This document shows, piece by piece, positions 19,773 to 42,964 of a stretch of DNA of 64,000 nucleotides (position 1 is its first letter; every line of letters starts with the position of its first letter). The notes under the pieces are model-generated. The model made no database searches and was not told the origin of the DNA. It saw only the letters and a program-made list of their open reading frames with translations. The stretch is from an uncultured virus (IMG/VR IMGVR_UViG_3300025736_000015) (taxonomy: Duplodnaviria; Heunggongvirae; Uroviricota; Caudoviricetes), in the IMG/VR virus record IMGVR_UViG_3300025736_000015, one strand, 5' to 3'. The position numbers and the translations under genes are program-made.

Positions 19773-19775
19773 AAA

Positions 19776-20564: not shown

Positions 20565-20587
20565 TCCAAAATACATTACGGAGTCAT

Positions 20588-22000: not shown

Positions 22001-22033
22001 TTAAAAACAAACCGTTGGGGGCATTTTTATAGA

Positions 22034-23863: not shown

Positions 23864-23901
23864 ACTTTTATCATTACGAATAAACTAGGAAGATATATAT
23901 T

Positions 23902-25320
23902 ATGGCCGATGAAAATGAAATGTTGTTTATAAGAGGAAAAAACTGTAGTTATTGTATACACGGCTATAATGGCATAGGACATATGGTAGATTATGCTGTT
24001 GATAAAGGGTTATGGAATATAACTGATGCTGGAGCAGAAAATGCTAATAAAACTTTTGTATATGATGCAATTGACCAATATAATCCTTTTAGTGTTTTTG
24101 GTTTTGGTCATGGCAATTCTTGTATATTTACAGGTGATACACCTGAAAGTATTTTTACCTGTGATGAATGTAGTAATTTAGCAGGACGGGTTGTTTATCT
24201 TATTTCATGTTTAACAGGAAAACAATTGTGTTCTGAAATTTTAGACCAAGGTGGTAAAGCAGCAGTTGGTTATAATGTTACTTGGACATATGTAGCTCTT
24301 TGGAAAGATGTAATGAATCCAGTTGAATTCAAATATGATGACCCATATGATGACCTTTATGCAAAAGGATTTTGGGAAAGTGCTAACGAGTTTACAAAGT
24401 CATTATTGGATGGTAAAACAATTCCCGAAGCGGTTCAAGCGTGTATTGATAAATATGATGAATGGATTGATTTCTGGTTTGACCATTCGAGTTATCCGTT
24501 ATCAGCATCATGTATACAATATCTTGCGTATGACCGTGATGGTCTTGTTGCATTTATTTCATGCGGTGCGATAACTGATGAAGCCGAGTGTTTAGCTAAT
24601 GGTTGTCATTGGCACAATAATACCTGTTTTTCTTGTGAAGAAATTACTTCAGTAATTGAATGTAATAATTATGGATGTTACTGGTATGATGGTAGTTGTC
24701 ATGGTTTAGGAAATATATGCAATTGGATTGAGGATAATCCATCTATTACCATTGACAAAGTATTTGAAATAATAGATAGTTATACGTCTCAAACATCCCC
24801 AGATGAAACAAAATATGATTTTGTTCCTACACTTGAACAAGTATTTGGTGTCATTAATTACTATCTTGGATATGATGGTTCGGATAAAACAGGATGTATT
24901 AGTTGTGAACACTATACTTCTGCTGAAGATTGTAGTGATGCTGGTTGTTATTGGTATGGTGGAGTTTGTCATAGTGAACTTGTATGTGAGGATATTCTTG
25001 ATGAAAATTTATGTGGAGATAATGGATGTTTTTGGTATAATAATAGTTGCCATGGTACTCCTCAATCAACATGTGAACAATTAACTAACCAAACTGATTG
25101 TTATGCTCAGGGTTGCTATTGGTATAATGGTAGTTGTCACGATTTTATAATCTGTTCAGAGATAAATAATGATGGAGAGTGTAGTTGGCTTGGATGTTAC
25201 TGGCATGGTTCTGACTGCCGTGATACTTTGAATTGTGAAGATGTTGAAACTGAGGGTTTATGCAATGAATTCGGTTGTTACTGGTATAATAATAGTTGCC
25301 ATGCAGACCCACAATACTAA
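23902..25320 (+). CDS. Caspase/gingipain-fold peptidase (paralog of 15318) + 7 Cys/Trp repeats + internal dockerin-like module
   Basis: VFGFGHG ... VVYLISCLTG; VFEIIDSY...QVFGVINYYLGYDG. Confidence 0.8.
   Translation: MADENEMLFIRGKNCSYCIHGYNGIGHMVDYAVDKGLWNITDAGAENANKTFVYDAIDQYNPFSVFGFGHGNSCIFTGDTPESIFTCDECSNLAGRVVYLISCLTGKQLCSEILDQGGKAAVGYNVTWTYVALWKDVMNPVEFKYDDPYDDLYAKGFWESANEFTKSLLDGKTIPEAVQACIDKYDEWIDFWFDHSSYPLSASCIQYLAYDRDGLVAFISCGAITDEAECLANGCHWHNNTCFSCEEITSVIECNNYGCYWYDGSCHGLGNICNWIEDNPSITIDKVFEIIDSYTSQTSPDETKYDFVPTLEQVFGVINYYLGYDGSDKTGCISCEHYTSAEDCSDAGCYWYGGVCHSELVCEDILDENLCGDNGCFWYNNSCHGTPQSTCEQLTNQTDCYAQGCYWYNGSCHDFIICSEINNDGECSWLGCYWHGSDCRDTLNCEDVETEGLCNEFGCYWYNNSCHADPQY
25162..25305 (+). 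repeat. 144-bp near-identical duplication, copy 1
   Basis: 141/144 identical to 25697-25840. Confidence 0.9.
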
Positions 25321-25357
25321 CGTTTAAATAAAACCTGAAACATTTTATATTGGTAGT

Positions 25358-26278
25358 GTGAAAAAAAAGATGCAACAAAACAACCAATTTGGATTATTTA
25401 TGCTTGATGGTACGCTTTGCGATTGGATTAATGATAAAGGGGGAAAAGATACATTAACCATTATTAATGTTTTTGAAATATTTGATGCATATATTTATCA
25501 AAATCCACCAACTGATTATAGTTTTGTACCAACTTTGACTAACACAGTTGGCGTTATTGATTATTATCTAGGTTTTGATGGTGATGACAAAACAGGATGT
25601 TATGATTGCGAAACATATACTAATTATTCCGAATGTAATGCTGCTGGTTGCCATTGGTATAATAATAGCTGTCATCCTTCTTTGATTTGTAGTGATATAA
25701 ATAATGATGGGGATTGTAGTTGGCTTGGATGTTACTGGCATGGTTCTGACTGCCGTGATACTTTGAATTGTGAAGATGTTGAAACTGAGGGCTTATGCAA
25801 TGAATTCGGTTGTTACTGGTATAATAATAGTTGCCATGCAAATACACCAACATGTGAAGGCCTTAATAACGAGTTAGACTGTACAGGATATGGTTGTTAC
25901 TGGTTCAATGGAGCATGTTATTCTGAACCACCTTGTGAAAACTTTAATTATAAGATAGATTGCCAAAACGCTGGTTGTTATTGGTGGAGGGATAGCACTT
26001 GTCATAGCGAACTTGAACCAGACCCATGCAATCAATACACAGATTGGGAGGATTGCCTAGCAAACGGGTGTGAATGGTATAATGGTGCTTGTCGTTCATG
26101 GGCACCAATTTGTATTAATCATACAAACCAAACCACCTGCGAAGCAAACGGATGCTATTGGTATAACTACGTTTGCAATTCTGAACCGTGGGAATGCAGT
26201 AGTCAGCCTACTCAATATACATGTACACAAGCGGGTTGTTATTGGTATGATGATAGTTGCCATAGTGAACCACAATAA
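25358..26278 (+). CDS. Headless member: N-terminal dockerin-like module + 8 Cys/Trp repeats
   Basis: LCDWINDKGG...VFEIFDAY...GVIDYYLGFDGD then repeats; start codon uncertain. Confidence 0.8.
   Translation: MKKKMQQNNQFGLFMLDGTLCDWINDKGGKDTLTIINVFEIFDAYIYQNPPTDYSFVPTLTNTVGVIDYYLGFDGDDKTGCYDCETYTNYSECNAAGCHWYNNSCHPSLICSDINNDGDCSWLGCYWHGSDCRDTLNCEDVETEGLCNEFGCYWYNNSCHANTPTCEGLNNELDCTGYGCYWFNGACYSEPPCENFNYKIDCQNAGCYWWRDSTCHSELEPDPCNQYTDWEDCLANGCEWYNGACRSWAPICINHTNQTTCEANGCYWYNYVCNSEPWECSSQPTQYTCTQAGCYWYDDSCHSEPQ
25697..25840 (+). repeat. 144-bp near-identical duplication, copy 2
   Basis: 141/144 identical to 25162-25305. Confidence 0.9.
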
Positions 26279-26614: not shown

Positions 26615-26790
26615 CAATGGTCGGGCAACCAACTATATATAAGTTTTTCACCATATTTATATACTAACATTACCTTTTTTGATAACGTTAAAATAAGGTG
26701 AAGTGAGCTTTAATTGTATAAACCAATAAAGAAAAGTTAATTGATTTTTGTTCACTCAACATGAAAAAAAAACATGAGGTGAAAAAATAT

Positions 26791-27132
26791 ATGGCAAAAT
26801 TTGGTTATCAAAAACCAACTAAAACGGCATTGTTAACTAGTGCAGGTGCCGTGGTCGGAGCAATAACGCCACCATTAATAAGGAAGTTTTTTCCAGGAAC
26901 ACTTTTAGCTGGAACAATACCAGCACCATGGTGTAACAATGATGTAATCATACCAATGGTTGCAGGTGGTGTAGCATTAGGAGCAGGTCTATTTGTAAAG
27001 AGTAATGCAACTCAATCTATATTAGTCGGGTTTGGGTTAGTATCTCTAGTGACAGGAGCATTAAGAGGAGCATTGCCAGAATATGGTTTCCCAGTAGCAA
27101 GAGCTGGTGGGGTAAGATTAATAAAAAGGTAA
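26791..27132 (+). CDS. Gly-rich multi-TM membrane protein (family M, copy 1); putative virion membrane protein
   Basis: GAGGTGA SD before ATG 26791; three hydrophobic segments; KSN motif. Confidence 0.75.
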   Translation: MAKFGYQKPTKTALLTSAGAVVGAITPPLIRKFFPGTLLAGTIPAPWCNNDVIIPMVAGGVALGAGLFVKSNATQSILVGFGLVSLVTGALRGALPEYGFPVARAGGVRLIKR

Positions 27133-27143
27133 GGTGAAAAAAA

Positions 27144-27587
27144 ATGAAAGCAAGAACAAAAGAATATTTAAAATGGACGAAAGATAAAGGAATTTGGATT
27201 GCTGGCGGTGCAATTGTGGGTGGTGTGATTTTACCTCCTATGTATAGAGCAATTGTCCCATCTGCACCATGGATTACAACTGGACCAGCATGTCTACAAG
27301 ACAATACAGTTATTGTAAGTTTTGTAGGTGCAGGTATTTTTGGAGCAATTGCAGCTGGGTTATGGAAAAGCAATAAATTTATTGCAACAACATGTGGTGG
27401 TTTATCTCTAGGTCAATTGATATATGCACTTGGAAAATGTTTTGTACCACAATATTTCCCATATGGTGCATCACAAGCTAGAGCTTCAACAGCTAGATAT
27501 GCTAGTGCAAGGCCAGCAATGGCAAGAACCGCATCTATGGCACCCTTGACAAATACTGGGATTCCACCAGCTAAAGTATTGGCGTAA
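27144..27587 (+). CDS. Gly-rich multi-TM membrane protein (family M, copy 2)
   Basis: GAIVGG..PP..R; GLWKSN; ARA-rich tail. Confidence 0.75.
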   Translation: MKARTKEYLKWTKDKGIWIAGGAIVGGVILPPMYRAIVPSAPWITTGPACLQDNTVIVSFVGAGIFGAIAAGLWKSNKFIATTCGGLSLGQLIYALGKCFVPQYFPYGASQARASTARYASARPAMARTASMAPLTNTGIPPAKVLA

Positions 27588-27616
27588 AAATAAATAACGC
27601 CATTCTCTCTTTTTTT

Positions 27617-28531
27617 TTATTTTTTATATTTTTTAAGACTAACCATATGATTGCAATTGTGACATAAAATTCTAAAACCATCTGGAAAATTATTTTTTAT
27701 CAACCAATCATAAAAATTAGCATTTAGTTTTATTCTATGCTGTTTACCACCACCATTAATATGGTCAATTGTTAAAAAATCAACATCATCATGCCCGCAT
27801 AGTTTACATTTCATATTACCATCTGAATATATCTGGATAGCAATCATTCGTTTTGTTTCACGAGAAATAAGAGATTCTCTCATCTTACAAGTTTTACATC
27901 TAGCACCCAATCCATCTGTTTCATATTTACTTTTATAAAATTTATTAGGAGATAACCATTTTTTGCAATCAAAGCACCATCGTCTACCCTTTTTATCACG
28001 TTCGGTATGTTCTATTTGTTGATTTATAGGTAAATTATATTCATACATTAATTTAGAAATAAGTTCTGCACGTACACCTGCTTTTTTTCCCATTTTTTCC
28101 AGTGATAACTTGTTATCATAATGTTGTTCTACAAGCCAGTCAGGATAATGATATTCTTCTATTGTTTGCAGTTCTGATTTTAAATTTCCATTAGAATGTA
28201 TAGGAATGTTGTGTTTTTCCATTGCTCTTTTAACAAGATTGCTTTTAGAGTTTTTACTAATGCTTTTTGCAATTTTATATAACTCTAAATCAAATCCCCA
28301 ATGTTGTAGTGTTAACCAATTAATGTCATTTAATAAATAGTATTTTGCCCCATCTATTTTAGTTCTAGTAGATAGGCGTCTGGGTATGTTATGTTTTTTC
28401 ATCCAATAAGCAATACCTGCTCCATTTGTTTCTTTCAATCCAGATATTTTTTGTATTTGTCTTGTTGTTAAATCAAATCCCCAGTATTGTTCTGTAAGCC
28501 AGTTTTTATCTTTGTATACCTCATTTTGCAT
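27617..28531 (-). CDS. HNH endonuclease with three N-terminal HTH-like repeats
   Basis: WL..Q(Y/H)W/Y repeated three times; C..C Zn finger; CKLCG...LTIDHI.GGG..H...ILCHNCN. Confidence 0.85.
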   Translation of the reverse strand: MQNEVYKDKNWLTEQYWGFDLTTRQIQKISGLKETNGAGIAYWMKKHNIPRRLSTRTKIDGAKYYLLNDINWLTLQHWGFDLELYKIAKSISKNSKSNLVKRAMEKHNIPIHSNGNLKSELQTIEEYHYPDWLVEQHYDNKLSLEKMGKKAGVRAELISKLMYEYNLPINQQIEHTERDKKGRRWCFDCKKWLSPNKFYKSKYETDGLGARCKTCKMRESLISRETKRMIAIQIYSDGNMKCKLCGHDDVDFLTIDHINGGGKQHRIKLNANFYDWLIKNNFPDGFRILCHNCNHMVSLKKYKK

Positions 28532-28533
28532 AC

Positions 28534-28546
28534 TGTCAATATGTCA
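28534..28546 (-). promoter_or_regulatory. TGWCA-N3-TGWCA box directly upstream of the HNH start
   Basis: TGTCA-ATA-TGTCA on +. Confidence 0.75.
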
Positions 28547-28664
28547 CTAATAATATAAAACATTTTAGGTAGGTATGCCAAAACTATTGCACATTTTTTA
28601 AGTTTTGTTCTTTGAAAAAGTTTTTATACTGTGTATATGATTAGAAATTAGGTGAAGTGATTAA

Positions 28665-29153
28665 ATGCAAAAATTTGATAAAAAAACGTTGATATATGGT
28701 GCAGGTGCAGGATTAGGTGTAATACAAACTGTTGTATCCAGAGAATGGGGTATTTGTCCTTTGATTGGTGGATATTTGCCACCTAATTGGAATCGCAGTG
28801 GCGTTATAGGAAACATCATATTCGGTACTTTAGTCCTTGGAATATCTCAATATACAAAACTGTTTAAAAAGCATACCTACATAAAAGGAGCACTAACTGT
28901 TTATGGTATGGCAATAATCGCTGGTGGTTTTGTAAATGCACTTGTTCCTAGCTCTATACCATCGGCAGGTCAAGGCATGGCATTAAGAAGAACAGCAGGC
29001 AACGGTGTCTATACAGCTAGTTATTATCCAGGGTTTCAAGGAAATTTTTATAGAAGACCACAAAGCCCAGCAAGAGGTTTTGGTTCTGATGTAACTAGAA
29101 ATCCTATGGCAATGATTCCTACGACAATACCATATAATCAAATAGTATCTTAA
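28665..29153 (+). CDS. Multi-TM membrane protein (family M, copy 3)
   Basis: GAGAGLGVI..., LPPNW, three hydrophobic segments. Confidence 0.75.
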   Translation: MQKFDKKTLIYGAGAGLGVIQTVVSREWGICPLIGGYLPPNWNRSGVIGNIIFGTLVLGISQYTKLFKKHTYIKGALTVYGMAIIAGGFVNALVPSSIPSAGQGMALRRTAGNGVYTASYYPGFQGNFYRRPQSPARGFGSDVTRNPMAMIPTTIPYNQIVS

Positions 29154-29160
29154 AAGGATG

Positions 29161-29195
29161 AAGGCTTAAAATATTACAAGCCTTTTTTATTTTTT
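29161..29195 (+). terminator. Hairpin + T-tract between convergent genes
   Basis: AAGGCTT-N10-AAGCCTT followed by T runs. Confidence 0.55.
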
Positions 29196-29331
29196 AATTT
29201 TTTCTAGTTAAATTAAAACCACATTTTGGACATTTTTTAGCATAACAAGGACTGCCCGTAACATGTCGTTCTGTATAACCACATTTATGACAAATACAAG
29301 TTCCTTCTGGTCCTAAACCATATCTTTCCAT
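29194..29331 (-). CDS. Small Zn-ribbon protein (45 aa) of archaeal GPxGxCxCxxCG type
   Basis: MERYGLGPEGTCICHKCGYTERHVTGSPCYAKKCPKCGFNLTRKN. Confidence 0.7.
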   Translation of the reverse strand: MERYGLGPEGTCICHKCGYTERHVTGSPCYAKKCPKCGFNLTRKN

Positions 29332-29337
29332 ACAATT

Positions 29338-29493
29338 TCATCTCCTGAAAATTGATTCACCTAATTTTAAATATTGTTGCATAAGTTCTGTTAAAACAAT
29401 ATTAACTTCTCGTCCATTAGTGCGACATTTATTTGTAAATTTAATATAGAGTGACCTATTCACAGGTGTTGGTCGAGATGTTTTTGTTTTCAT
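29338..29493 (-). CDS. RHH-like small DNA-binding protein (51 aa)
   Basis: MKTKTSRPTPVNRSLYIKFTNKCRTNGREVNIVLTELMQQYLKLGESIFRR. Confidence 0.55.
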   Translation of the reverse strand: MKTKTSRPTPVNRSLYIKFTNKCRTNGREVNIVLTELMQQYLKLGESIFRR

Positions 29494-29531
29494 CAGAAAA
29501 AAACTAACAAGTAACAACTATATAAAGATTG

Positions 29532-29544
29532 TGTCATCTTGTCA
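29532..29544. promoter_or_regulatory. TGWCA-N3-TGWCA box
   Basis: TGTCA-TCT-TGTCA next to the minus-strand TTTATATA promoter of the RHH gene at 29493. Confidence 0.75.
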
Positions 29545-29700
29545 TTATGCTAATATTTTTGGTTCGAGTTCTTTTAGATACTTGTTAACTGCTTTTCTAA
29601 TAAATGATGCTCTGTTATCAAACTCTTTTTTACTTATTAAGTTATCTATCTTATCTATGTCATCTGAATCAAGTCTTGTATAGACAACTTTCTTTTGCAT
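29545..29700 (-). CDS. CopG/RHH transcriptional regulator
   Basis: MQKKVVYTRLDSDDIDKIDNLISKKEFDNRASFIRKAVNKYL. Confidence 0.85.
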   Translation of the reverse strand: MQKKVVYTRLDSDDIDKIDNLISKKEFDNRASFIRKAVNKYLKELEPKILA

Positions 29701-29807
29701 TACAATGCATAACAATCCTTGCGTATATATATCTTTTGTCAGACACATCTTTTTATATCACTATATATATTTCAACGTTAACTAAAAAAATAGAGGTGAA
29801 GTGAAAA

Positions 29808-30545
29808 ATGGTTGTATTAGGAATACAAAACGCTACCTTTGCGGAAACAGCATTAACCACTGAGGAGCAGACGCTATGGGAAACACAATATAACGACCTG
29901 TTCTTTGCCCCGTGGAGTTTTGAACGACAGTATGTAAATAGTAAAAAAACTGTTGTCGATGCGGGAATTAGAGCAGCGAAGAACGCTCTCGATGAAAAGA
30001 AATTTGGTGGATTAAACTGTGCAGACAGTGAACTTGGTATCACTACCATCCGTCCAGGACAAGTAGGTCTTGTAAACGGAGCAACACCAGAAGCTGACAA
30101 TGTATGGAAATGGAAACATGACTGTATAAAGCAAGCACAAGGTGTCGGTTTTGAGAACTGGATACACAGTCCGGCAGCAGGAGCTCCAACAACTTCATTT
30201 GCAACTCCTGAAGAAGCTTTTTACATACCACTATATATACATGAAGAAAACTGCAGTCCAAGAATACAGACTGTAAAACTTGACATTGGAAGAGCCAACA
30301 TATTGTATTATGATGTTGCAGCTTGTAGAATGCGAGATTACATATCAGGCACTAATTTGATACCTTTGCCAACAACTTTCTGGGCACCAGAAATGGATGT
30401 CAAGGTGGCATTAGGTTTCAAGATGAATGGAACTACTGAACCACGTTTAGGCGGGTTCTGCGTGGCCCTTGGGTCATTTCTTGACGCAACATACTATACT
30501 GCTAGTAGTAATTCTGTTGTAGCTGGAACAACTGCGTCCACTTAA
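29808..30545 (+). CDS. Candidate major capsid protein (single jelly-roll-like, inferred)
   Basis: Strong promoter and GAGGTGA SD; first gene of a structural operon; beta-rich C-terminal half (FATPEEAFYIP...LPTTFWAPEMDVKVAL...LGGF). Confidence 0.5.
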   Translation: MVVLGIQNATFAETALTTEEQTLWETQYNDLFFAPWSFERQYVNSKKTVVDAGIRAAKNALDEKKFGGLNCADSELGITTIRPGQVGLVNGATPEADNVWKWKHDCIKQAQGVGFENWIHSPAAGAPTTSFATPEEAFYIPLYIHEENCSPRIQTVKLDIGRANILYYDVAACRMRDYISGTNLIPLPTTFWAPEMDVKVALGFKMNGTTEPRLGGFCVALGSFLDATYYTASSNSVVAGTTAST

Positions 30546-30563
30546 TCAGGAGGCTGATTAAAA

Positions 30564-31040
30564 GTGGCACAGTTGGGACAACCAAAATCTACGGCTTTTT
30601 CCGAAGAGGATGTTTGCTTTATCAGCAAAGCCGACCCCTGTGCAATTTGGACTGGAACAAAAATATTATATTCTGGTCTTGCAGATGGTACGCCACAACA
30701 GGCAAGTGGGTATAACTTTTTAAGCGGAGAAACAGATATTGAACCAATAAATATTTCAGGTTGGGGAAGAATACGAGTTCCTGAACTGAATCAATTGCAT
30801 AAAGTATTTGTATTTCCAAAAGACCCATGTGTAATTGCAAGAGGTGATTATACTACATTAACAGTTAGCACAGCAAGTGGATACCCAGCTGGTCATGGTG
30901 GATGCAGTGGAAAAATAGGACTCATTCATTATATCAATACAGCTGCAGGAAGCGGTCAAACAGGATGTTCAGGTGAATTTGTATCAGGAACATACAACTC
31001 AGGACTGATTGACATAATTGCTGTTGGGAGTCAAATGTGA
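30564..31040 (+). CDS. Ser-Gly-rich structural protein, paralog 1 of 3
   Basis: TAFSEEDVC...WGRIRVPELNQLH...; 10 SG dipeptides. Confidence 0.8.
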   Translation: MAQLGQPKSTAFSEEDVCFISKADPCAIWTGTKILYSGLADGTPQQASGYNFLSGETDIEPINISGWGRIRVPELNQLHKVFVFPKDPCVIARGDYTTLTVSTASGYPAGHGGCSGKIGLIHYINTAAGSGQTGCSGEFVSGTYNSGLIDIIAVGSQM

Positions 31041-31051
31041 GGTGATATAAT

Positions 31052-31537
31052 ATGACATGGACACCAAAAAATGATAAACCTACGGCTTTCTCCGAAGAAG
31101 ATGTCTGTATGATTAGCAAAGCATCTCCTTGTGCAATTTGGGCAGGAACTAAAGTTCTTTATTCAGGAACTGCTCTTTCTGGAGCAGCAAGCGGATATAA
31201 CTACAAAAGTGGAGAAACAGACCTAGCACCAATAAGTTGGTCAGGATGGGGTGAAATAAGAATACCTGAATTGAACCAACTACATCATATATATGTATTT
31301 CCAAAAGACCCTTCGATAGTAGCTAGAGATTCATATACACAACTAGTGGTTAGTACTGCAAGTGGATACCCATCAGGTACTGGTGGATGTAGTGGAAAAG
31401 TAGCACTTCTCAAATATGCATCATTTTGTGCAAGCGGGGAATGGGCAACTCCAATGGGATGCTCAAACCTAATATGGGATTCGGGTTACTACAATTCTGG
31501 TCTTGTAGATGTAATTGCTTTCGGGAGTCAGATGTGA
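31052..31537 (+). CDS. Ser-Gly-rich structural protein, paralog 2 of 3
   Basis: Same motifs; 11 SG. Confidence 0.8.
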   Translation: MTWTPKNDKPTAFSEEDVCMISKASPCAIWAGTKVLYSGTALSGAASGYNYKSGETDLAPISWSGWGEIRIPELNQLHHIYVFPKDPSIVARDSYTQLVVSTASGYPSGTGGCSGKVALLKYASFCASGEWATPMGCSNLIWDSGYYNSGLVDVIAFGSQM

Positions 31538-31548
31538 GGTGATATGAT

Positions 31549-32031
31549 ATGGCACAATTAGGTCAACCAAAATCTACGGCTTTCTCCGAAGAAGATGTCT
31601 GCATAATCAGTAAAGAGCAACCCTGTGCAGTATGGGTAGGAACAAAAATACTATATTCAGGTCTAGCAGATGCAACACCACAACAAGCAAGTGGATATAA
31701 TTTTGGAAGTGGGGAATCAGATATAGAACCAGTAAGTCTTTCAGGATGGGGTAGAATAAGAGTCCCTGAACTGAGTCAGTTACATAAAGTATTTGTATTT
31801 CCAAAAGAGCCAAGATTACTTGCTGCAGATAATTATACAACGCTTACACTTGGAACAACAAGTGGTCTTCCAAGTGGAACAGGTGGATGTAGTGGAAAAG
31901 TAGCACTCATCAACTATCTGGACATCTGCAATTTGAGTACTAGTGGAGTGCATGAAGGATGTTTAGACTTTGAATCAGGAAACTGGACATCTGGACTTGT
32001 AGATATAGTTGCATTCGGAAGCCAATTCTAA
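31549..32031 (+). CDS. Ser-Gly-rich structural protein, paralog 3 of 3
   Basis: Same motifs; 10 SG. Confidence 0.8.
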   Translation: MAQLGQPKSTAFSEEDVCIISKEQPCAVWVGTKILYSGLADATPQQASGYNFGSGESDIEPVSLSGWGRIRVPELSQLHKVFVFPKEPRLLAADNYTTLTLGTTSGLPSGTGGCSGKVALINYLDICNLSTSGVHEGCLDFESGNWTSGLVDIVAFGSQF

Positions 32032-32063
32032 GCCTTTTGGCTTAGACCCTCTCTCTTTTTTTT
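32028..32063 (+). terminator. Hairpin + oligo-T terminator of the putative capsid operon
   Basis: CTAAGCC-TTTT-GGCTTAG followed by a pyrimidine/T8 tract. Confidence 0.6.
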
Positions 32064-32124
32064 AATTATTTCTAACTAATTTATACTAACCTTTTTAAAG
32101 ATATAAAACATTGACAGATTAGCA

Positions 32125-32703
32125 ATGAAACAATGCATTAAATGTAGAATGACAAAAGATGAAAGTGCTTTTTATCCAAATAGAACTAGAAAAGATGGTC
32201 TGCATAATACATGTATTCAATGTCAGAAAAAATATTATCAAGAAAATAAAGAATATTTTAAACAATATAGAAAAAACAATCCTGAAAGATTTGGTGACAA
32301 ATATTATATAAAAAAGATTGGGGATGTTCCTAAAAAAATTATAGAGATTAGAAAAAAGAGAGAAAAAAAATATTTTGAAAAGCATAAAAATACAGAAGAA
32401 TTTAAACGAAGAAAACGTAGAAATAGTAGAAATTATAGAATCAATCATCCTGAACGGGAACGCAATGGTATTTTTAAAGAAATGCAACTATCTGAAAGTT
32501 TTACTGATAAAGAATGGGAATCTAAAGTAAAAGAAACCAATGGCATTTGTTTTTTGTGTGGTCGTTTTTATGAAGAGGGATATGGATTATCATTAGACCA
32601 TAATCCACCTGTTTCTAAAGCTCCGATTGGTTTTGTATATACAATAAATGATGTTCAACCTGTTTGTCGTTCATGCAACAGTTCAAAAGGAGTATCGTTT
32701 TAA
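32125..32703 (+). CDS. HNH endonuclease
   Basis: KQCIKC..K....F.......DG....CIQC; CFLCG...LSLDH..PVSK......VQPVCRSCNSSKG. Confidence 0.85.
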   Translation: MKQCIKCRMTKDESAFYPNRTRKDGLHNTCIQCQKKYYQENKEYFKQYRKNNPERFGDKYYIKKIGDVPKKIIEIRKKREKKYFEKHKNTEEFKRRKRRNSRNYRINHPERERNGIFKEMQLSESFTDKEWESKVKETNGICFLCGRFYEEGYGLSLDHNPPVSKAPIGFVYTINDVQPVCRSCNSSKGVSF

Positions 32704-32808
32704 AAAGGTTTATATATCACTGATTTCATTAGAAATTATAGGTGAAGTGAAATTTTTAAATATTGCTTTATTTAGAACTAATAAAAAAAAGTCGAGGTGA
32801 AGTGAAAA

Positions 32809-33465
32809 ATGCTTGAAATAGAAAAATATATACCGCAAGAAAATTGGTATGTGGGCCTATTATTTTATGAAGGATATTTCTTTTTTAAAATAATTCGTAA
32901 ACAACAGCTCACTGTTAATATGCCATATGAATTTGAAGATGGAGATACAATACAACCGGATGCTACAAGTGGTTGGGAATCACCAACTGATGCACAAGGT
33001 CGTTTTTATCTTGAACCACAAGAAGAGGAAACAATTTATCAGTTTTTTACTGGGTTTTCCCCAAGTCAATCAAAAGTTTATTTGCAATACACACAACGTG
33101 AAGATAGAATGAATCTTATAACGCCACGTCCAGTGCCAGGCAATATCGGTTTCTGGGATGGTGAAATGAGTGCATATCGTGACCCATCTCCTATAACAGA
33201 GCTTTGGACGGTGCATGACCTTTATCCATATTTCAATGTGGAAAATGCTGGTGTTTCATGCGTAGCTAAAAAAATTAGCAGTAGTTTCTGGATAACAGAA
33301 TTTACTTATCAGGCAGTTAAGGATGAAGCAAAAATAAAAAGCTTTTTACGTGGAGATAAACGTTGTTCTATTAAAACAATGGGTGATGGAAGCAGACCAA
33401 TTAAAGCACCTGCGTGGCTGGTTGAAGATTATTCAGAATTTATGCTACAACCGGAGGCGGTTTAA
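32809..33465 (+). CDS. Beta-rich putative virion protein (possible second capsid protein)
   Basis: Same GAGGTGAAGTGAAAAATG leader as 29808; aromatic-rich beta pattern. Confidence 0.5.
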   Translation: MLEIEKYIPQENWYVGLLFYEGYFFFKIIRKQQLTVNMPYEFEDGDTIQPDATSGWESPTDAQGRFYLEPQEEETIYQFFTGFSPSQSKVYLQYTQREDRMNLITPRPVPGNIGFWDGEMSAYRDPSPITELWTVHDLYPYFNVENAGVSCVAKKISSSFWITEFTYQAVKDEAKIKSFLRGDKRCSIKTMGDGSRPIKAPAWLVEDYSEFMLQPEAV

Positions 33466-33466
33466 A

Positions 33467-33877
33467 ATGGCAGAAAAAACTCTTGCACATGTTCAAGAAT
33501 ATACTAAGGAAGGAAGGCTTGTAATACCTCTTGACGACCCTAGAACATCTGATTATAACAATGAAATAATTGGTAGTGGATATACTAGTGGATTTATTTA
33601 TAGTGCTTGTAGCGGTAAAGAAGTTTATATCAAGCACATGATTGTGACCGAATATAGTGGAACAGACGGGATGTTGCGTCTTAATGATGCAAGCGGTCAA
33701 ATAACACCATTTATACCAGTTGCTGCAAATACATGTGTTACTTGGGACCCAAGACCTACAGCCTGTGGACCACTTCATGCAGTTGGTGATGCATTAGAAG
33801 TATTTTGGAATACTGATGCAGCATTCTATGGCTCGTTAACATTAATAGTTCAAGTAGACCCACAAGTAGAAGAATAA
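33467..33877 (+). CDS. Small beta-sandwich putative virion protein
   Basis: Start reassigned to ATG 33467 after GGAGG; 5 SG. Confidence 0.65.
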   Translation: MAEKTLAHVQEYTKEGRLVIPLDDPRTSDYNNEIIGSGYTSGFIYSACSGKEVYIKHMIVTEYSGTDGMLRLNDASGQITPFIPVAANTCVTWDPRPTACGPLHAVGDALEVFWNTDAAFYGSLTLIVQVDPQVEE

Positions 33878-33910
33878 ACGCTTATCCTTTGATATAAAAG
33901 GAGATAAAAT

Positions 33911-34273
33911 ATGGCTGAGTTAAATTTCAGGTCAACGGTTTCTGCTTTGACAGAGAGTAGAAATACAATGTATAGTCCTGTTACAGGAATGCTTAACTCA
34001 GCAGTTCTTCATTTTCCAACTGGTTGCAATAGTCTTGTAGAAGTATTTATATATGTATATTCAAGACAATTATTGCCTTATCCAGCTGTAGGAGCGGGAG
34101 CATCTGATAATGGTATTGCTCTTGATGATGCTACGCAGTCTTTTTCTATTAGTGAATCTATTGGACAAGGTGAACCAATTGAAGTAGTTGTAAATAATCA
34201 TGATGCTGGTTTTCCGCATACTATTTCAGCAATAGTATTGATAGAAGAAGAACAAAAATATACAGGACCATAG
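33911..34273 (+). CDS. Single jelly-roll-like minor capsid/penton candidate
   Basis: SP..G.L....LHFP.GC..LV.V...LDD....F......GE.I.V...N.D...HTIS; alternating beta pattern of ~8 strands. Confidence 0.55.
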   Translation: MAELNFRSTVSALTESRNTMYSPVTGMLNSAVLHFPTGCNSLVEVFIYVYSRQLLPYPAVGAGASDNGIALDDATQSFSISESIGQGEPIEVVVNNHDAGFPHTISAIVLIEEEQKYTGP

Positions 34274-34290
34274 GAGGATTAAGATAAAAC

Positions 34291-34800
34291 ATGGTAGAAT
34301 CATGGGGAACAGGAAGACCAGATTATACTGGACAACAAACAGTAGTTGATGAAGTTACAAAGGTAAATGTAACTGCTGTTGCTTATATTTCAGGTCAACC
34401 AATTTATATGACTAGTGGTCATTTAACTGTTGTTTCAGGTGTTGTAGATGCTATTGTCAGTGGAACAGTTGTAACAAGCGTAAGTGGTCAAGCATTACAT
34501 CTTGGTGCCTCGGATACTGTTCGTACTGCTGATTTAATACGCATTACAGGTGCAAGTGGTGGGGAGCCTATTGCCAGGGTTGGTTGGTGCAGTGGAAACC
34601 TTCATAGCATACTTGTTAAAAGCATGAGTGGAAATGAAGATATTTATATTGGGGGAATAGATTGCAGGCCATATAGTGGTCATGGTTTTGCTTTATCAAT
34701 GGCTGAAGCAGTAACAGTTGACATGGATTCACCGATGAACGTATATGCTTATGCAGCCATTAGTGGACAATTTTTGACCTGGATGGGAACGGATTATTAA
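34291..34800 (+). CDS. Ser-Gly-rich spike/fibre-like protein (paralog of 42502)
   Basis: Periodic V/I-x-SG N-terminal repeats; 10 SG. Confidence 0.7.
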   Translation: MVESWGTGRPDYTGQQTVVDEVTKVNVTAVAYISGQPIYMTSGHLTVVSGVVDAIVSGTVVTSVSGQALHLGASDTVRTADLIRITGASGGEPIARVGWCSGNLHSILVKSMSGNEDIYIGGIDCRPYSGHGFALSMAEAVTVDMDSPMNVYAYAAISGQFLTWMGTDY

Positions 34801-35471
34801 TGCCAATTCTTGGTGATGATACTCATTTAGTAAATACTATTACTTCTGGTTTAGCATCATATATTAATGGCACTATTTTTACTTATACTGATGGGGATAG
34901 AGCGGTTGTTACCTCTATGTCAGCATGGGCCGATGGTGGCACTAGTATGAAACTAGCTATCTATTACGTTGAGGATGATGCTGTCACATATACTCTTTTG
35001 AAAGCAACTGAGCTTATTTCTGACACAACAGGTTTTTCTTGGAAGACAGGTAATATAGCACAGCCTTGTCCTGTGCTTAGAACAGGTAGAAGATATGTTC
35101 TTGTAGCAACTGCTAATTCAGCTGTAGGTATTGATGGTGCGTGGAATAATGCTTGGTCTGATGGTCGTGGTGAATGTATTTGGACCGGTTGGCCTGATTT
35201 ACCCGAATGTATTACTTTTGGTTCTCAACAAGCAGACCCTCCAGAAGGTAGCCCATGTCCAGAATGCATAGGATGCACTACTCAAGAAGAATGTGAAGAA
35301 AATACCTGTTTTTGGTATAGTGGTGGTTGTCATTTTTATCCAGAAGCACAATTTAGTGATTTTTTTAGTCTTGTAAATAAATATCATATCTATGCTACTT
35401 ATCATGTTCCTGGCGGTGGAGCAGGGATAACATTCAAAAAAACAGATTTGAAATTAAAACTGAAAAAATAA
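34800..35471 (+). CDS. Beta-sandwich protein with one inserted Cys/Trp repeat
   Basis: MKLAIY.. domain; CIGCTTQEECEENTCFWYSGGCH. Confidence 0.75.
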   Translation: MPILGDDTHLVNTITSGLASYINGTIFTYTDGDRAVVTSMSAWADGGTSMKLAIYYVEDDAVTYTLLKATELISDTTGFSWKTGNIAQPCPVLRTGRRYVLVATANSAVGIDGAWNNAWSDGRGECIWTGWPDLPECITFGSQQADPPEGSPCPECIGCTTQEECEENTCFWYSGGCHFYPEAQFSDFFSLVNKYHIYATYHVPGGGAGITFKKTDLKLKLKK

Positions 35472-35515: not shown

Positions 35516-35535
35516 ATTATGAGGTGAGAAATTTT

Positions 35536-36297
35536 ATGGCAATATGGGAAAATCCAAATATTTTATCAGGCACAAGCACACAACAACAAGTTGCAGGTGC
35601 AAATAAAGCTGAACTAGGCCTTTGTATAATTCATACAGGAACAGTAAGTACTGAATGGGCAATGCGTTTCAAACTTCTTCAAATGCCACCTTTTGTTTAT
35701 GTGTTTAATCGTAATCAACCATATGATACTGCTCGTGAACAATGTACAAGAGCTGTTTTACAGAATAAAGACGTAAAATGGGTATTCCATCTGGATACAG
35801 ATGTTTTGATACCTATTGATGCAGTTCCTAAAATGATTGAATTTGCTGAACAATTTAATCTACCTGTTTTAAGTGGTCTTTATTGGGCTAAAAAACCTGG
35901 TTTGCCAATGCCTGCAGCATGGATAAAAACAGGCGAACATCCTGAAGAAATGCGATATGATTTTGCACCTATTGATGTTAAACCACATATGGATACGGGT
36001 GCCCTTCTGCCAGTAGATGTTGTTGGAGCGGGTTGTTTACTTATTAAAAGAGATGTTTTTGAAAAACTTGATAAAACAAATCCTAATAAACCATATTTCC
36101 AATGGGGTCTTGGTAGAAAAGAAAAAAGCACAGGGAAACCTCTACTTCAAATGAGTGAAGATTTTTATTTTTGTACTAGAGTTGTAGAGGAATTAAATAT
36201 TCATCCTCATCTTTGTTCTAATGTAAGATGTGACCATATTGCTACGGTTTATAGACGTGGAGAAGATGGAGAGTTTGAGCTTTCAACGAGGATATAA
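35536..36297 (+). CDS. GT-A fold glycosyltransferase (GT2-like)
   Basis: DTARE, WVFHLDTD (DxD), VDVVGAGCLLIKRDVF, SEDFYFC. Confidence 0.85.
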   Translation: MAIWENPNILSGTSTQQQVAGANKAELGLCIIHTGTVSTEWAMRFKLLQMPPFVYVFNRNQPYDTAREQCTRAVLQNKDVKWVFHLDTDVLIPIDAVPKMIEFAEQFNLPVLSGLYWAKKPGLPMPAAWIKTGEHPEEMRYDFAPIDVKPHMDTGALLPVDVVGAGCLLIKRDVFEKLDKTNPNKPYFQWGLGRKEKSTGKPLLQMSEDFYFCTRVVEELNIHPHLCSNVRCDHIATVYRRGEDGEFELSTRI

Positions 36298-36428
36298 ATG
36301 AAAAAACTTAGATGTTTACTCAGAATTCATAAGTTTAAATTTAAGTATGCTGACCACAGATATGATATATATGGATGTATCCTATGTGGCAAAGAGGCAA
36401 GAACAAGAAATTGGAGTCCTGAAACAAT

Positions 36429-37529
36429 ATGAAAATCGCTATTTATAGTACACAAATAATACCTACTAATCCTGACCTTGATGAATATGGCGGTCTTGAA
36501 CTTATAGCAGGTCTTCAAGCTAAACATTTTGATGAAACAGGACATGATGTCAGTCTTTTTGCATGTAATGATAGTTATTTTAGAACAGAGAAAGATGGAA
36601 CAAAGAAAGGTAATGGACATCTTTATGCTGTAGGACCAAAAGGAACTGACCCTGTTAAAGCTTGGAAGGCTTATTGGGATGATGCTCGTTCTAAACAGGT
36701 TTTAAAGGATGCAGATATTGTTGTTGACCATAGTTGGAATTATTTTCCATATTCTGTTCATGGCGAATTAAAAAATGTTTGTCATTGTTGGCATGGTCCT
36801 GACCCTGGTTTTAATACAAAACCTCCGTTTGATAGACCAAATTTTATGGCTGTTAGTTTTAATCATGCTCAACGGCTTATGCAGATGGCACCAAGTATTG
36901 AATATAGAGGAGTGCAAAATAGTATCCCTCTTTATAAATATACATATAATGATAAACCAATTGGGGATAGGGAACGTTTGCTTTGGCTTAGTCGTATTTA
37001 TGAACCAAAGGGAGCTCATCGAGCAATAGAGATAGCAAATACTCTTAAAATGCCTATAGACATCGTAGGAGGTTCTTTTGGTGATGTTCCGCAATATAGT
37101 GCTAAGATTAAGAAGATGTGTGAGGATAGCCCTTTTGCAACGTTTCATGGGGAAGTTAATTTTCAGAAAAAATTAGATTTTTATCGTAATGCTAAATGTG
37201 TTATAATGCCAATTATGTTACAAGGATTTGAAAGTATACCCGTTCCAGGATGGCAATGGCATGAGCCTTTTGGTCTTATTACGCCAGAGGCAAATGCATG
37301 TGGAACTCCTGTTGTCGTTACACCAAATTGTGGATGGAATGAGAGCATAATACATGGATATAATGGTTTTTTATCTAATTCTGATAAAGACTTTGAATAT
37401 CATATAAAACAGATAGATAAAATAAAACCAGAAGATTGTAGAAAAATGGCTGAACGGTTTGATTACAAAATCATGGGTGAACGATACCTCAGTCTTTTTA
37501 AAGAAATAATAGATGGAAGAGGTTGGTAA
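36429..37529 (+). CDS. GT4 glycosyltransferase
   Basis: YGGLE, GHDVSLF, LSRI..PKG, EPFGLITPEANACGTPV. Confidence 0.9.
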   Translation: MKIAIYSTQIIPTNPDLDEYGGLELIAGLQAKHFDETGHDVSLFACNDSYFRTEKDGTKKGNGHLYAVGPKGTDPVKAWKAYWDDARSKQVLKDADIVVDHSWNYFPYSVHGELKNVCHCWHGPDPGFNTKPPFDRPNFMAVSFNHAQRLMQMAPSIEYRGVQNSIPLYKYTYNDKPIGDRERLLWLSRIYEPKGAHRAIEIANTLKMPIDIVGGSFGDVPQYSAKIKKMCEDSPFATFHGEVNFQKKLDFYRNAKCVIMPIMLQGFESIPVPGWQWHEPFGLITPEANACGTPVVVTPNCGWNESIIHGYNGFLSNSDKDFEYHIKQIDKIKPEDCRKMAERFDYKIMGERYLSLFKEIIDGRGW

Positions 37530-37699
37530 TATGGGTTTGATATGTAAATTGTTTGGACATAAATATGTTAAACGAAAAATAGATTTAAATGTTTACGAAC
37601 ATGTTTGTAAATATTGTGGTAAAAACAGAGATGTATATCAAGAAGGCGAATCAAAAAACGATGAGATAAAATATTATAGTAAAGAGGACGGCAAAAAGG

Positions 37700-38809
37700 A
37701 TGACACCTAATTCCATTTTTTTAACAAATTCAGGCATAAATCCATTTTCCGGTGGAGGAATTGTGGGGATGAATTATGTTGAATCTTTAAAAGCAGTTTC
37801 TACATTACAATATATTCTTTGTGGCACAAAATTTTCAGATGATAAATATAACGGCATACCAGCCTATACTATTAATGCAAGAGATTGGGGTTATGTAAAT
37901 TGGAGAACAACACCATTTTTTGAAGATTATATGGCATTTCATCTGTTACAGAAACAACCAAAAATTGATTTAGTAATGACATATGGATGTCCTTTTGGTT
38001 TAACAATTGAGGAAGCAAAAAGGGAATTTTCTTCTAAAATAGTCTGTGACCTTGCACCACATATAATTGAAATTACTAAAGAAGACCATCTAAAATATGT
38101 TGGTAGCTATGATTATCCACATCTCGTTGATGATGTTTTATGGGGATTATATTCTCGTCATCTTAAATTTGCAGATGCCGTGGTAGTCCATTCACATAAA
38201 TCAGCAGAATATATTGAAAAAAAGGCAAATCTTACTACGACACCTCATGTTATACCTCATGGTTGTAATCTACCAGAACAATCATTTGAGATACCAGATA
38301 TATTTACACCTGGTTATTTTGGTGCCATAGGTATTGATAAAGGAGTTATGTATCTAGCAAATGCCTGGCTTAATCTTCCATATGCTGAATCACAATTGGT
38401 AATTGGTGGAAGAGAAGGTGAAGGATTCAAAATTGAAGATAAATATACATCTCGTTTTAAAATACTTGGGTTTGTTGAAAACCTTGTAGATTTTTATAAA
38501 CAAATAAGTGTATATATACAACCTTCGATTACAGAAGGCTTTGGGATAACACCACTGGAAGCAATGGCATATGGACGCCCAGTTATAGTTGCTGAAGGAG
38601 CAGGCATGTCGGAGCTTGTAACTGATGGTTTTGATGGTTTTGTAGTTCCGATACGTGATATAAAAGCAATAGTTGACAAGATAGGTTATTTTCATGATAA
38701 TCCATCTGAGATTCAACGTATGGGTAAAAATGCTCATGAAACAGCAAAAAAATATACATGGGATATTATTCAAAAACGATATACTAAATTATTTGAGGAA
38801 TTATTATGA
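37700..38809 (+). CDS. GT4 glycosyltransferase
   Basis: PSITEGFGITPLEAMAYGRPVI. Confidence 0.9.
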   Translation: MTPNSIFLTNSGINPFSGGGIVGMNYVESLKAVSTLQYILCGTKFSDDKYNGIPAYTINARDWGYVNWRTTPFFEDYMAFHLLQKQPKIDLVMTYGCPFGLTIEEAKREFSSKIVCDLAPHIIEITKEDHLKYVGSYDYPHLVDDVLWGLYSRHLKFADAVVVHSHKSAEYIEKKANLTTTPHVIPHGCNLPEQSFEIPDIFTPGYFGAIGIDKGVMYLANAWLNLPYAESQLVIGGREGEGFKIEDKYTSRFKILGFVENLVDFYKQISVYIQPSITEGFGITPLEAMAYGRPVIVAEGAGMSELVTDGFDGFVVPIRDIKAIVDKIGYFHDNPSEIQRMGKNAHETAKKYTWDIIQKRYTKLFEELL

Positions 38810-40500: not shown

Positions 40501-40919
40501 TAAGCAAGTAAAACATTAGTAACATGTGAAGCAAGAAACTAAAATAAAAATAATCGGCATTCTTTTAGGTATATTTACAGGGATTACAGGAGCATTAATT
40601 TTAAGATGGTATATGGAGAGAAAAGAGAAAAGACTACAAGAAGAACTTCATAATAGTTAGCAGAGGGAATCTGCAAGATGCTATTAGGATGATATACTGG
40701 TAAAAGTAAGAAAACTAGAAGATTTAGAACATGATTGGAATAGTGGAACAGAACCTGGTTATGGAATAAATCTTGATAAAAATATTTTTAGAAGAAGCAG
40801 AAAGAAGATACATAAATCTTGTTATTGTGGAAATCATAGTTGTGGTAAAGAAATATTTTTTTATAAAAAAAATAGAATATTGTATGGAATACGGTTACTT
40901 AAAAAATATAGAAAAAGGA

Positions 40920-41267
40920 TTAAGTAATTATTGTTTTTCCGCAACAGTTTGAATTTGATGATAAACGAGCATAGCTTGTTTCTGTTTTTGGAAGGAAATA
41001 ATTTACTGCAGCAGTTGATATTCCACCGAGACCCACACCAAGCATCAAATATTTTGTATTTGACTTCATAAGTAGCCCTATGAGAATTCCGCCAACTCCT
41101 AATCCTGCGGGAATTAATACATCTGTTTTTAGTGTATAATCAACGTATGGAATTAAATAATCCTGACTATAAAAATAACGACAAATAATTCCGACACCTG
41201 CACCAACACCAAATCCTGCTATAAGTGGAATACCTCCACCATTTCCCATTATACTACTTAATTTCAT
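40920..41267 (-). CDS. Gly-rich multi-TM membrane protein (family M, copy 4)
   Basis: DVLIPAGLG...LMKSN...GVGLG; GGTGA SD. Confidence 0.7.
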   Translation of the reverse strand: MKLSSIMGNGGGIPLIAGFGVGAGVGIICRYFYSQDYLIPYVDYTLKTDVLIPAGLGVGGILIGLLMKSNTKYLMLGVGLGGISTAAVNYFLPKTETSYARLSSNSNCCGKTIIT

Positions 41268-41277
41268 TTTTTTTCAC

Positions 41278-41424
41278 CTATCCTAATATAAACTGTGTTC
41301 CATGTTCTGGATTATCACACCAAGGGCTACCACAAACAGGACAACGAATTGTTTGTCTTCCTATATGAGGGCTATCCTCAGCTTTGTAAAAATTTTCTGT
41401 TCCACAACCATATGTCATTTTCAT
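41278..41424 (-). CDS. Small Zn-finger protein (48 aa)
   Basis: ...RCPVCGSPWCDNPEHG; ATGA coupling. Confidence 0.5.
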   Translation of the reverse strand: MKMTYGCGTENFYKAEDSPHIGRQTIRCPVCGSPWCDNPEHGTQFILG

Positions 41425-41600
41425 ACCACCGGAAGAAAACCATATTTTTTACGAGCATGATACGCACAAAGAGGAATTCCTTGATAAATACCAACAGAAG
41501 GACGTTTGCATGTAGCACAACATATAGTACCTCTGCACATTTCATGTCTTAATGCTCTAGTTGCGGGTGGATTAAATTGTCTACCAATAAGTCTTGGCAT
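41421..41600 (-). CDS. Small Zn-finger protein (59 aa)
   Basis: CATCKRP......PLCAYHA; GGAG SD. Confidence 0.55.
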   Translation of the reverse strand: MPRLIGRQFNPPATRALRHEMCRGTICCATCKRPSVGIYQGIPLCAYHARKKYGFLPVV

Positions 41601-41611
41601 ATTTTATCTCC

Positions 41612-42960: not shown

Positions 42961-42964
42961 TGAG

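Follow-up and report, generated by a model that had tools for sequence, protein, structure and literature searches.

The stretch from 26.8 to 35.5 kb of the 64-kb DNA analyzed here (the whole of which is referred to as the window) encodes glycine-rich membrane proteins followed by an operon of small proteins. It raises the question of whether such genes may build the particle of a virus in which the familiar genes for head, tail and DNA packaging are not recognized. An initial annotation had proposed a tailless virus with a single-jelly-roll capsid, a membrane and an unusually large genome. The observation behind this proposal was confirmed and its interpretation is partly supported: the window is most of a virus-like DNA element, probably of archaea, of about 75 kb. 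With a jelly-roll capsid candidate and no recognizable head-tail or DNA-packaging genes, the element may represent a type of large archaeal virus not described before.

Gene order and expression signals

The stretch, a putative morphogenetic module, contains the following genes, which are designated by their first position:

26761..27132, plus strand: Gly-rich hydrophobic protein, paralog 1; 123 amino acids (aa), 13% Gly, three hydrophobic segments, basic C-terminal tail
27144..27587, plus strand: Gly-rich hydrophobic protein, paralog 2; 147 aa, 11% Gly, one strong hydrophobic segment, AGGTGA ribosome-binding site
27617..28531, minus strand: HNH homing-endonuclease-like gene inserted in the module; matches PHROG HNH endonuclease families (best E 3.8e-13)
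28665..29153, plus strand: Gly-rich hydrophobic protein; 162 aa, 14% Gly, the conserved member of this family
29194..29331, minus strand: zinc-ribbon open reading frame (ORF); Zn_ribbon_8, E 0.0026
29338..29517, minus strand: small divergent gene, 59-aa ORF
29545..29748, minus strand: CopG-type ribbon-helix-helix regulator; RHH_1, E 8.3e-5
29808..30545, plus strand: predicted jelly-roll protein, best candidate for the major capsid protein from its predicted fold and structural matches; 245 aa, GAGGTGA site
30564..32031, plus strand: three tandem paralogs (30564-31040, 31052-31537 and 31549-32031), the 160-aa family; 158-161 aa, predicted beta-sandwich, lectin- or fibre-tip-like, alignment A2
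32125..32703, plus strand: HNH/endonuclease VII-like homing endonuclease interrupting the operon; Pfam HNH, E 7.6e-5; phrog_1035, E 3.6e-20; found in 4 loci
32809..33465, plus strand: conserved core protein, candidate second capsid or vertex protein; 218 aa, GAGGTGA site
33467..33877, plus strand: conserved core protein; 136 aa, homologs in 28 loci, alignment A4
33911..34273, plus strand: conserved protein, predicted beta-sandwich with virus-associated structural neighbours; 120 aa, homologs in 27 loci
34291..35471, plus strand: a 169-aa protein (34291-34800), then a window-specific 223-aa protein with one Cys-rich repeat (34800-35471); candidate spike or fibre parts

The gene positions given by the initial annotation were correct except for 26791, which is an internal methionine codon of the ORF starting at 26761. 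Membrane proteins rich in glycine do precede the operon, as it had reported: the three proteins 26761, 27144 and 28665 contain 11-14% Gly, one to three hydrophobic segments each, as scored by a crude Kyte-Doolittle scan, and basic tails. Homologs of 26761 were found in loci L001, L002 and L060. The 28665 family occurs in one or two copies upstream of the jelly-roll gene in relatives, with tblastn matches in 24 loci (36 ORF matches). None of the three proteins matched PHROGs, Pfam or the GenBank phage and archaeal-virus records. They are separated from the operon by the three small minus-strand genes (29194-29748), and homologs of the ribbon-helix-helix regulator adjoin the jelly-roll gene in 25 loci.

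The operon had been called strongly signalled, and this description was accurate. The sequence GAGGTGA, a 7-base anti-Shine-Dalgarno match and the longest seen, precedes only four of the 75 genes (29808, 31052, 31549 and 32809), all of them in the operon. An A/T-rich, TATA-like stretch lies upstream from 29808. A bacterial promoter and terminator scan of the region was uninformative as to promoters, since fewer promoter-like sites were found than in shuffled sequences. In the crude scan the N-termini of the operon proteins lack a hydrophobic segment, which fits assembly in the cytoplasm and argues against secretion. Profile-profile comparisons among the operon families (A1/A2, A4/A5, A6/A3, A6/A5, A6/A4 and A2/A4) detected no relationship.

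The protein encoded by 29808

The AlphaFold (AF2) model of 29808, built from an alignment of 41 sequences, was obtained with a pLDDT of 85.5 and a pTM of 0.87 and shows helices at residues 18-60 followed by a beta sandwich. The modelled fold is a jelly roll with N-terminal helices, in agreement with the strand pattern noted in the initial annotation, and it is not HK97-like. In an exhaustive structural search of 48,161 representative chains the top match was capsid chain 6oj0_T of Sulfolobus polyhedral virus 1 (SPV1; Z 6.2, root-mean-square deviation 3.9, 136 residues aligned). When the best 997 chains from Foldseek were re-aligned, the top match was SPV1 chain 6oj0_A (Z 6.1, 140 of 178 residues), followed by PRD1 P3 (5.3). 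The sequence identity between 29808 and the SPV1 chain is 4%. Viral capsid or scaffold jelly rolls make up 11 of the best 50 matches listed for the model: SPV1 and ten further rows, from Faustovirus, Orf virus (scaffold), EhV-201, ASFV (p72), STIV, PBCV-1, PRD1, phiCjT23, SGIV and P23-77 (VP17). Based on the model, 29808 is likely the major capsid protein.

Homologs of 29808 are numerous and none is annotated: 82 proteins of about 243 aa, with 49-100% identity, were collected, and in metagenome contigs the gene was found at 59 loci. A profile search of 1.84 billion representatives gave 66 proteins at E <= 1e-3 and extends the family to approximately 20-29% identity. Only two of 52 distant relatives had any PHROG match, one of them weak and the other to a tape-measure-like fusion partner, and neither assigns a function; no Pfam family of note was found among the distant relatives, and their clusters were described only as 'hypothetical protein'. 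No description of the family was found in a search of the open-access literature. Among genomes representing one per species (185,579 species) only two loci were detected, one on a 3.3 kb contig and the other on a 73 kb contig showing a jump in G+C content. This distribution fits a gene of an extrachromosomal element and not of a cell.

Genes for a head, a tail or a packaging motor

The initial annotation had seen no HK97 capsid, portal, terminase or tail genes in the 64 kb, and no packaging ATPase. Profile searches agree with it on both points. Terminase, portal, HK97, tail and packaging-ATPase families were absent from the window proteins (73 searched against Pfam, 50 against PHROGs and 54 against NCBIfam). 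Terminase, portal, HK97/capsid and packaging-ATPase families were likewise absent from the 73 kb syntenic relative described below (45 proteins searched against Pfam and 80 against PHROGs) and from 73 proteins flanking the 29808 homolog in 11 other loci. The three sets contain, in other words, neither the hallmarks of the Caudoviricetes (HK97-fold capsid, portal and large terminase) nor the FtsK/HerA-type packaging ATPase that is the hallmark of the Helvetiavirae/Singelaviria.

A Walker-A pattern occurs five times in the window, never in a protein assigned to an NTPase family, and the matches in the 73 kb relative are not in an NTPase family either. One of the five lies in the ORFan 51983-53071. 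This 362-aa protein, encoded within the sugar arm described below, contains a Walker-A-like string (A....GKT) and has no Pfam, PHROGs or NCBIfam match.

Related elements and size of the element

One relative is a 73,459-bp contig of a metagenome-assembled genome (MAG). Of its 105 ORFs, 26 have counterparts among the window proteins, and the gene order is the same across positions 5916 to 61999 of the window. It extends approximately 11 kb and 16 kb past the region in common and adds an archaeal-type MCM (phrog_10371, E 2.9e-191), LAGLIDADG and HNH endonucleases, a DNA methylase, a tRNA-Asn, an intein-bearing protein and a beta-helix protein matching a tail-spike PHROG. Neither the window nor this contig has terminal repeats.

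The intein-bearing protein is 601 aa long (L064:12976-14781, minus strand). Its intein includes a LAGLIDADG domain (Pfam), and its short exteins show a D.D ... S.HGFH pattern, which we take to resemble that of archaeo-eukaryotic primases.

The relatives of 29808 are located on contigs of 45-89 kb. The GH1 glycosidase encoded in the window belongs to a clade of its own (48-73% identity), specific to these elements, and the contigs of this clade, of 75,990, 57,806 and 45,314 bp, have the sizes of the contigs of the 29808 relatives L047, P0079 and L011. An identical copy of the window GH1 lies on a 75,714-bp contig. These co-occurrences indicate that the glycosylation arm downstream from the module is part of the element and that its genome is near 75 kb. 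The proposal of an unusually large virus-like element is thus supported, and comparison of the sequences supports the view that the region is part of a coherent, mobile element of this kind.

Other proteins of the operon

The initial annotation considered the operon proteins beta-rich. AF2 models agree with this for 29808 and for the 160-aa family, and for 33911 the agreement is indirect, from an Atlas model and its beta-sandwich neighbours. The Atlas model of 33911 has a pTM of 0.75; its nearest clusters (0.96 by features, TM 0.81-0.86) are hypothetical proteins labelled 69-93% viral.

The 160-aa family, which adjoins 29808, does not resemble a second jelly-roll capsid protein. In BFVD the 160-aa family matched an uncharacterized protein of Haloarcula hispanica tailed virus 2 (HHTV-2; E 4.4e-4) and several H-type lectin rows. 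Of the 34 loci with homologs of both 29808 and 32809, 18 carry one to three copies of this gene and the other 16 have none. With lectin- and fibre-tip-like matches and occurrence in only 18 of 34 loci, the family appears accessory and dispensable, and the models make it likely that the paralogs are surface or receptor-binding proteins and not a second capsid protein.

A candidate for a second capsid or vertex protein is 32809. Its homologs (55-86% identity in 30 ORFs) are linked to the jelly-roll gene in 34 loci, and the most distant full-length relative is 57% identical for 32809 and 60% for 29808, a similar degree of conservation. No Pfam, PHROG or Atlas match was found for 32809.

The protein encoded by 34291 matched by blastp the C-termini of proteins of 671, 787, 555 and 1934 aa, among others, and the relatives' proteins span 138-1934 aa, while 34800-35471 has no homolog in related loci. 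Variable proteins with a shared C-terminal domain are the pattern usual for spike or fibre proteins, and from their sequences the products of 34291-35471 are likely variable parts of such structures.

Proposed assembly and comparison with known viruses

We propose that the 26.8-35.5 kb stretch would be a morphogenetic module made up of basic-tailed membrane proteins, divergent small regulators and a highly translated operon. The operon would be led by the likely major capsid protein, 29808, together with the conserved 32809, 33467 and 33911, and the optional lectin-like proteins (30564-32031) and the variable spike or fibre protein (34291-35471) would complete the set. Since no terminase or FtsK/HerA-type packaging ATPase was found, the genome is probably enclosed by co-assembly: membrane and capsid would form around condensed DNA, as has been proposed for SPV1, and DNA would not be pumped into a preformed shell. 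The particle may be tailless and icosahedral, with an internal membrane. The adjoining 28 kb arm probably builds glycans, including a pseudaminic-acid-type sugar, that would decorate surface proteins of the virion or of the infected cell.

The closest analogue is SPV1 (Portogloboviridae). In both searches of the PDB a capsid chain of this virus matched the 29808 model best, at a Z of about 6 only; as in SPV1, no packaging ATPase was found in any sequence examined. The capsid of SPV1 is made of single-jelly-roll proteins (VP4 hexamers and VP10 pentamers) over an inner lipid layer, and the virus has membrane-protein genes and encodes a glycosyltransferase and a methyltransferase (PMC8459092). 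SPV1 is described as devoid of a genome-packaging ATPase and is placed at the base of the single-jelly-roll branch (PMC8812541). The Gly-rich, basic-tailed membrane proteins encoded next to the operon would be at most an indirect sign of such a lipid layer in the element. SPV1 differs in having a circular genome of 20 kb and a hyperthermophilic Sulfolobales host, whereas the element is of about 75 kb, low in G+C and from a salt-lake metagenome; there is no sequence similarity between them, and neither the VP1 nucleoprotein nor the VP10 penton of SPV1 could be matched to a protein of the element.

The element resembles SH1, SNJ1 and P23-77 (Helvetiavirae/'Singelaviria'), the type proposed in the initial annotation, in having a jelly-roll capsid candidate and, close to it, genes for membrane proteins. 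Chain 6qt9_g of the SH1 capsid and VP17 of P23-77 are among the weak structural matches of 29808 (Z 3.9). Viruses of this type possess a packaging ATPase and two jelly-roll capsid genes side by side (10.1101/2025.02.15.638363 and PMC8812541), and their newly described relatives have 13.6-18 kb (10.1101/2025.02.15.638363). In the element, in contrast, the defining ATPase was not found, the neighbouring 160-aa proteins are lectin-like and not present in all loci, and the genome exceeds theirs several-fold in size. A jelly roll was modelled with confidence for 29808 only; no capsid match to PDB sequences lay below E 0.16 (A1, A6), and there was no match in Pfam or PHROGs.

A new, large, ATPase-less virus, more similar to SPV1 than to SH1, has in our judgement an even chance of being the correct interpretation. 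A more specific proposal is put forward tentatively, the balance of probability being against it: a widespread, SPV1-like, membrane-containing jelly-roll lineage lacking a packaging ATPase, with genomes of about 75 kb, infecting mesophilic Thermoplasmatota and coating its virion by means of its own glycan factory of about 28 kb, which would include pseudaminic-acid-type synthesis. Single-jelly-roll viruses of archaea and bacteria have genomes of approximately 14-31 kb, and to our knowledge SPV1 is the sole single-jelly-roll lineage without a packaging motor and is known only from hot springs. If the proposal is true, motor-less jelly-roll capsids can carry large genomes of about 75 kb, the supposedly ancestral architecture extends to common archaea of sediments and lakes, and the element would be the first large-genome relative of the so-called ancestral state of the single-jelly-roll virus lineage. 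The family is present on dozens of metagenome contigs and absent from IMG/VR. It thus appears to escape the standard pipelines for virus detection, and some of the archaeal virome may go unnoticed in this way.

Alternative interpretations

Several results weigh against a jelly-roll virus. The structural aligner cautions that a Z under 8 may reflect a common arrangement only, and as no chain reaches Z 8 for the 29808 model, its link to capsids is suggestive only; cellular jelly rolls (DOC/APC10, CBM32 and 2OG dioxygenases) are interleaved with the capsid matches. Foldseek comparison of the model with the PDB and BFVD gave nothing at E <= 1e-3. Sequence-profile searches of the PDB with A1, A2 and A6 gave nothing significant, the sole rows for A6 being 'Capsid protein VP1' at a non-significant E of 0.16-0.26. 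Scans of IMG/VR with 29808, 31052, A1, A5 and A3 found no relative, and DNA and protein searches of the GenBank phage and archaeal-virus records found no match, so that the family is tied to no observed virion. The 160-aa model is of low confidence (pLDDT 62), and the structures it matched best, with Z up to 5.1, are H-type lectins and the tips of tail fibres from pyocins and phages. The commonest label among the structural neighbours of 33911 is Uroviricota, that is, tailed viruses. About 11.7 kb of the presumed parent contig lies outside the 64 kb examined.

As the main alternative, the element could be a large enveloped virus of archaea, either spindle-shaped or pleomorphic, in which 26761, 27144 and 28665 would be the main virion proteins and the beta proteins terminal fibres, spikes or adhesins. 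We consider it unlikely, although the three paralogous small hydrophobic proteins lie directly upstream from the operon, the 28665 family is kept in 24 loci, and likenesses to fibre or spike parts are seen in the 160-aa family and in the beta-helix protein encoded by the 73 kb relative. Spindle-virus capsid proteins are usually shorter than the 123-162 aa, basic-tailed proteins found here, for which PHROGs, Pfam and the GenBank virus records gave no match; within the module, conservation and ribosome-binding signals are strongest for 29808 and 32809; and no AAA+ ATPase or integrase was seen. AAA+ ATPases beside capsid proteins were used as spindle-virus queries in a preprint on nanohaloarchaeal viruses (10.1101/2025.02.15.638363). 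According to PMC9894754, the capsid proteins of all spindle-shaped viruses are alpha-helical and highly hydrophobic, and these viruses do not require a terminase; the Itzamnaviridae and Tepeuviridae of ANME-1 resemble the element in their small hydrophobic structural proteins, separate structural and enzymatic arms and size, one ANME-1 spindle virus reaching 72.6 kb. In the element, on the other hand, the conserved, highly signalled genes encode soluble beta proteins, and neither the window nor the 73 kb relative showed a PolB, which the same paper reports for the large ANME-1 spindle viruses.

A non-viral origin, as a plasmid-like element or an archaeal genomic island for surface proteins and glycan machinery in which 29808 would be a cellular carbohydrate-binding jelly roll, seems to us rather improbable. 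Sugar metabolism does take up nearly half of the window, many carbohydrate-binding modules occur among the structural matches of 29808, no virus hallmark family was found in the window or the 73 kb relative, and IMG/VR contains no relative. Evidence against such an origin comes from the two loci in 185,579 species genomes compared with 59 in metagenomes, from the lack of housekeeping genes, tRNA and rRNA in the 64 kb, and from homing endonucleases, orphan DNA methylases, the location of nearly all genes on one strand and, in the 73 kb relative, an MCM. The core operon proteins, having no hydrophobic N-termini, do not appear to be secreted, and Pfam and Walker-A scans of the window found no conjugation or partition ATPases. 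Very improbable, finally, is a highly divergent head-tail virus with its HK97 capsid, portal and terminase in the remaining 11.7 kb or beyond profile detection. It would account for the Uroviricota labels of the 33911 neighbours, for the fibre-tip-like and tail-spike-like proteins and for one distant 29808 relative (P0128, partial) that is fused to a stretch matching tape-measure PHROGs. Large terminase subunits are, however, usually detectable by such profiles, and no terminase, portal, HK97 or tail-tube family was found in the window; the 73 kb relative and the regions flanking the gene in the 11 loci likewise gave no hallmark family.

Host

The host is possibly a member of the Thermoplasmatota, judging from the MCM sequence. 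This evidence comes from the 73 kb relative and not from the window: its MCM is 50-53% identical to cellular MCMs, and the seven organism-named matches among the 120 listed are all Thermoplasmata, Thermoplasmatales, Thermoplasmatota or 'Euryarchaeota'. The host named in the initial annotation is therefore favoured indirectly, through the relative, and not for the window itself. The sequencing runs containing the window stretch are labelled salt lake metagenome, and none is recorded as RNA.

Two other hosts were considered and rejected. A 'Chloroflexia' host is suggested by the label of the 73 kb contig, which rests on its high-GC end of 4.8 kb. This end (L062:1-4800, contig C5 of G001) has about 69% G+C, carries an MMPL transporter gene and joins abruptly to element DNA of about 35-38% G+C. 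It is probably an assembly chimera, which makes the label uninformative on the host. The second candidate was a 'Nanoarchaeota' host, by co-binning; outside the 3.3 kb relative, the MAG that contains it has no homolog of GH1 or 32809. When 20 kb of the window was searched for spacer-like matches in 401 genomes from the phylum to which this MAG belongs, only short A/T-rich matches were obtained besides the MAG itself, and three high-identity short matches that were inspected were not within a repeat array. The sole non-trivial matches there, apart from the MAG, were to the zinc-ribbon gene 29194-29331 (minus strand), which encodes a four-Cys protein of 45 aa: over 115-127 nt, the DNA of this gene shares 70-71% identity with stretches in two genomes of that phylum, G115 and G293.

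The remainder of the window

The window has a base composition of 31-41% G+C and nearly all of its long ORFs are on the plus strand. No tRNA or Rfam match was obtained in the 64 kb, and no housekeeping genes were found in it with Pfam, tRNA and Rfam scans. Four blocks can be distinguished:

1-15 kb: ORFans, an HNH gene and two methyltransferase genes, one of them for an MT-A70 DNA methylase
15-26 kb: Cys-rich repeat proteins; the conserved part, 15097..26278 (plus strand), comprises a small protein, two proteins with a common N-terminal domain of about 230 aa (15318 and 23902) and the repeat proteins, with homologs in 9-20 loci
26.8-35.5 kb: the stretch under study
35.5-64 kb: the glycosylation arm, 35524..63978 (plus strand), with glycosyltransferases, methyltransferases, genes for NDP-sugars and pseudaminic-acid-type nonulosonic acid and the GH1 glycosidase, identified by Pfam

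The glycosylation arm is conserved, with syntenic homologs in the 73 kb relative, and its size would be unusual in a prokaryotic virus, being so large. Its region 43011-63978 contains a near-complete pseudaminic-acid-type set: a PseB-like dehydratase (50498-51478, minus strand), a DegT aminotransferase, a GNAT protein, a PseG/PseF-like fusion (NCBIfam), two NeuB and a cytidylyltransferase. Genes for a GDP-mannose dehydratase and a UDP-glucose dehydrogenase, together with that for the GH1 glycosidase, adjoin this set.

Nine adjacent Cys-rich genes between 15318 and 26278 share an 81-nt (27-aa) repeat, C-x-GC-YW-x-C-H, present in at least 23 copies. The Cys-rich proteins contain 12-49 Cys, and several have C-terminal membrane anchors in the hydrophobicity scan. 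The repeat proteins have no family match, yet they are kept in 16-20 related loci. A segment of about 50 aa (VFEI.D ... VFGVIDYYLG.DGD) lies near the C-terminus in 18762, 20588, 22034 and 23902 and near the N-terminus in 25358. The N-terminal domain common to 15318-16178 and 23902-25320 has a His-Gly ... Ser-Cys pattern similar to the catalytic dyad found in cysteine peptidases of the caspase or gingipain type; the domain has no Pfam match, and its homolog in the 73 kb relative is 50% identical.

Three HNH-type homing-endonuclease genes are present in the window, at 4420-4791, 27617-28531 (minus strand) and 32125-32703. The latter two sit within the structural module and are missing from most relatives, homologs of 32125 having been found in 4 loci and of 27617 in 1. 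In the first block, 5916-9812 encodes a 788-aa protein with an N-terminal helix-turn-helix, a Pro/Gln-rich region, three zinc ribbons and an internal tandem duplication of 93 nt; this gene and the next two (8284 and 9066) form a trio that is kept in the 73 kb relative and in locus L027.

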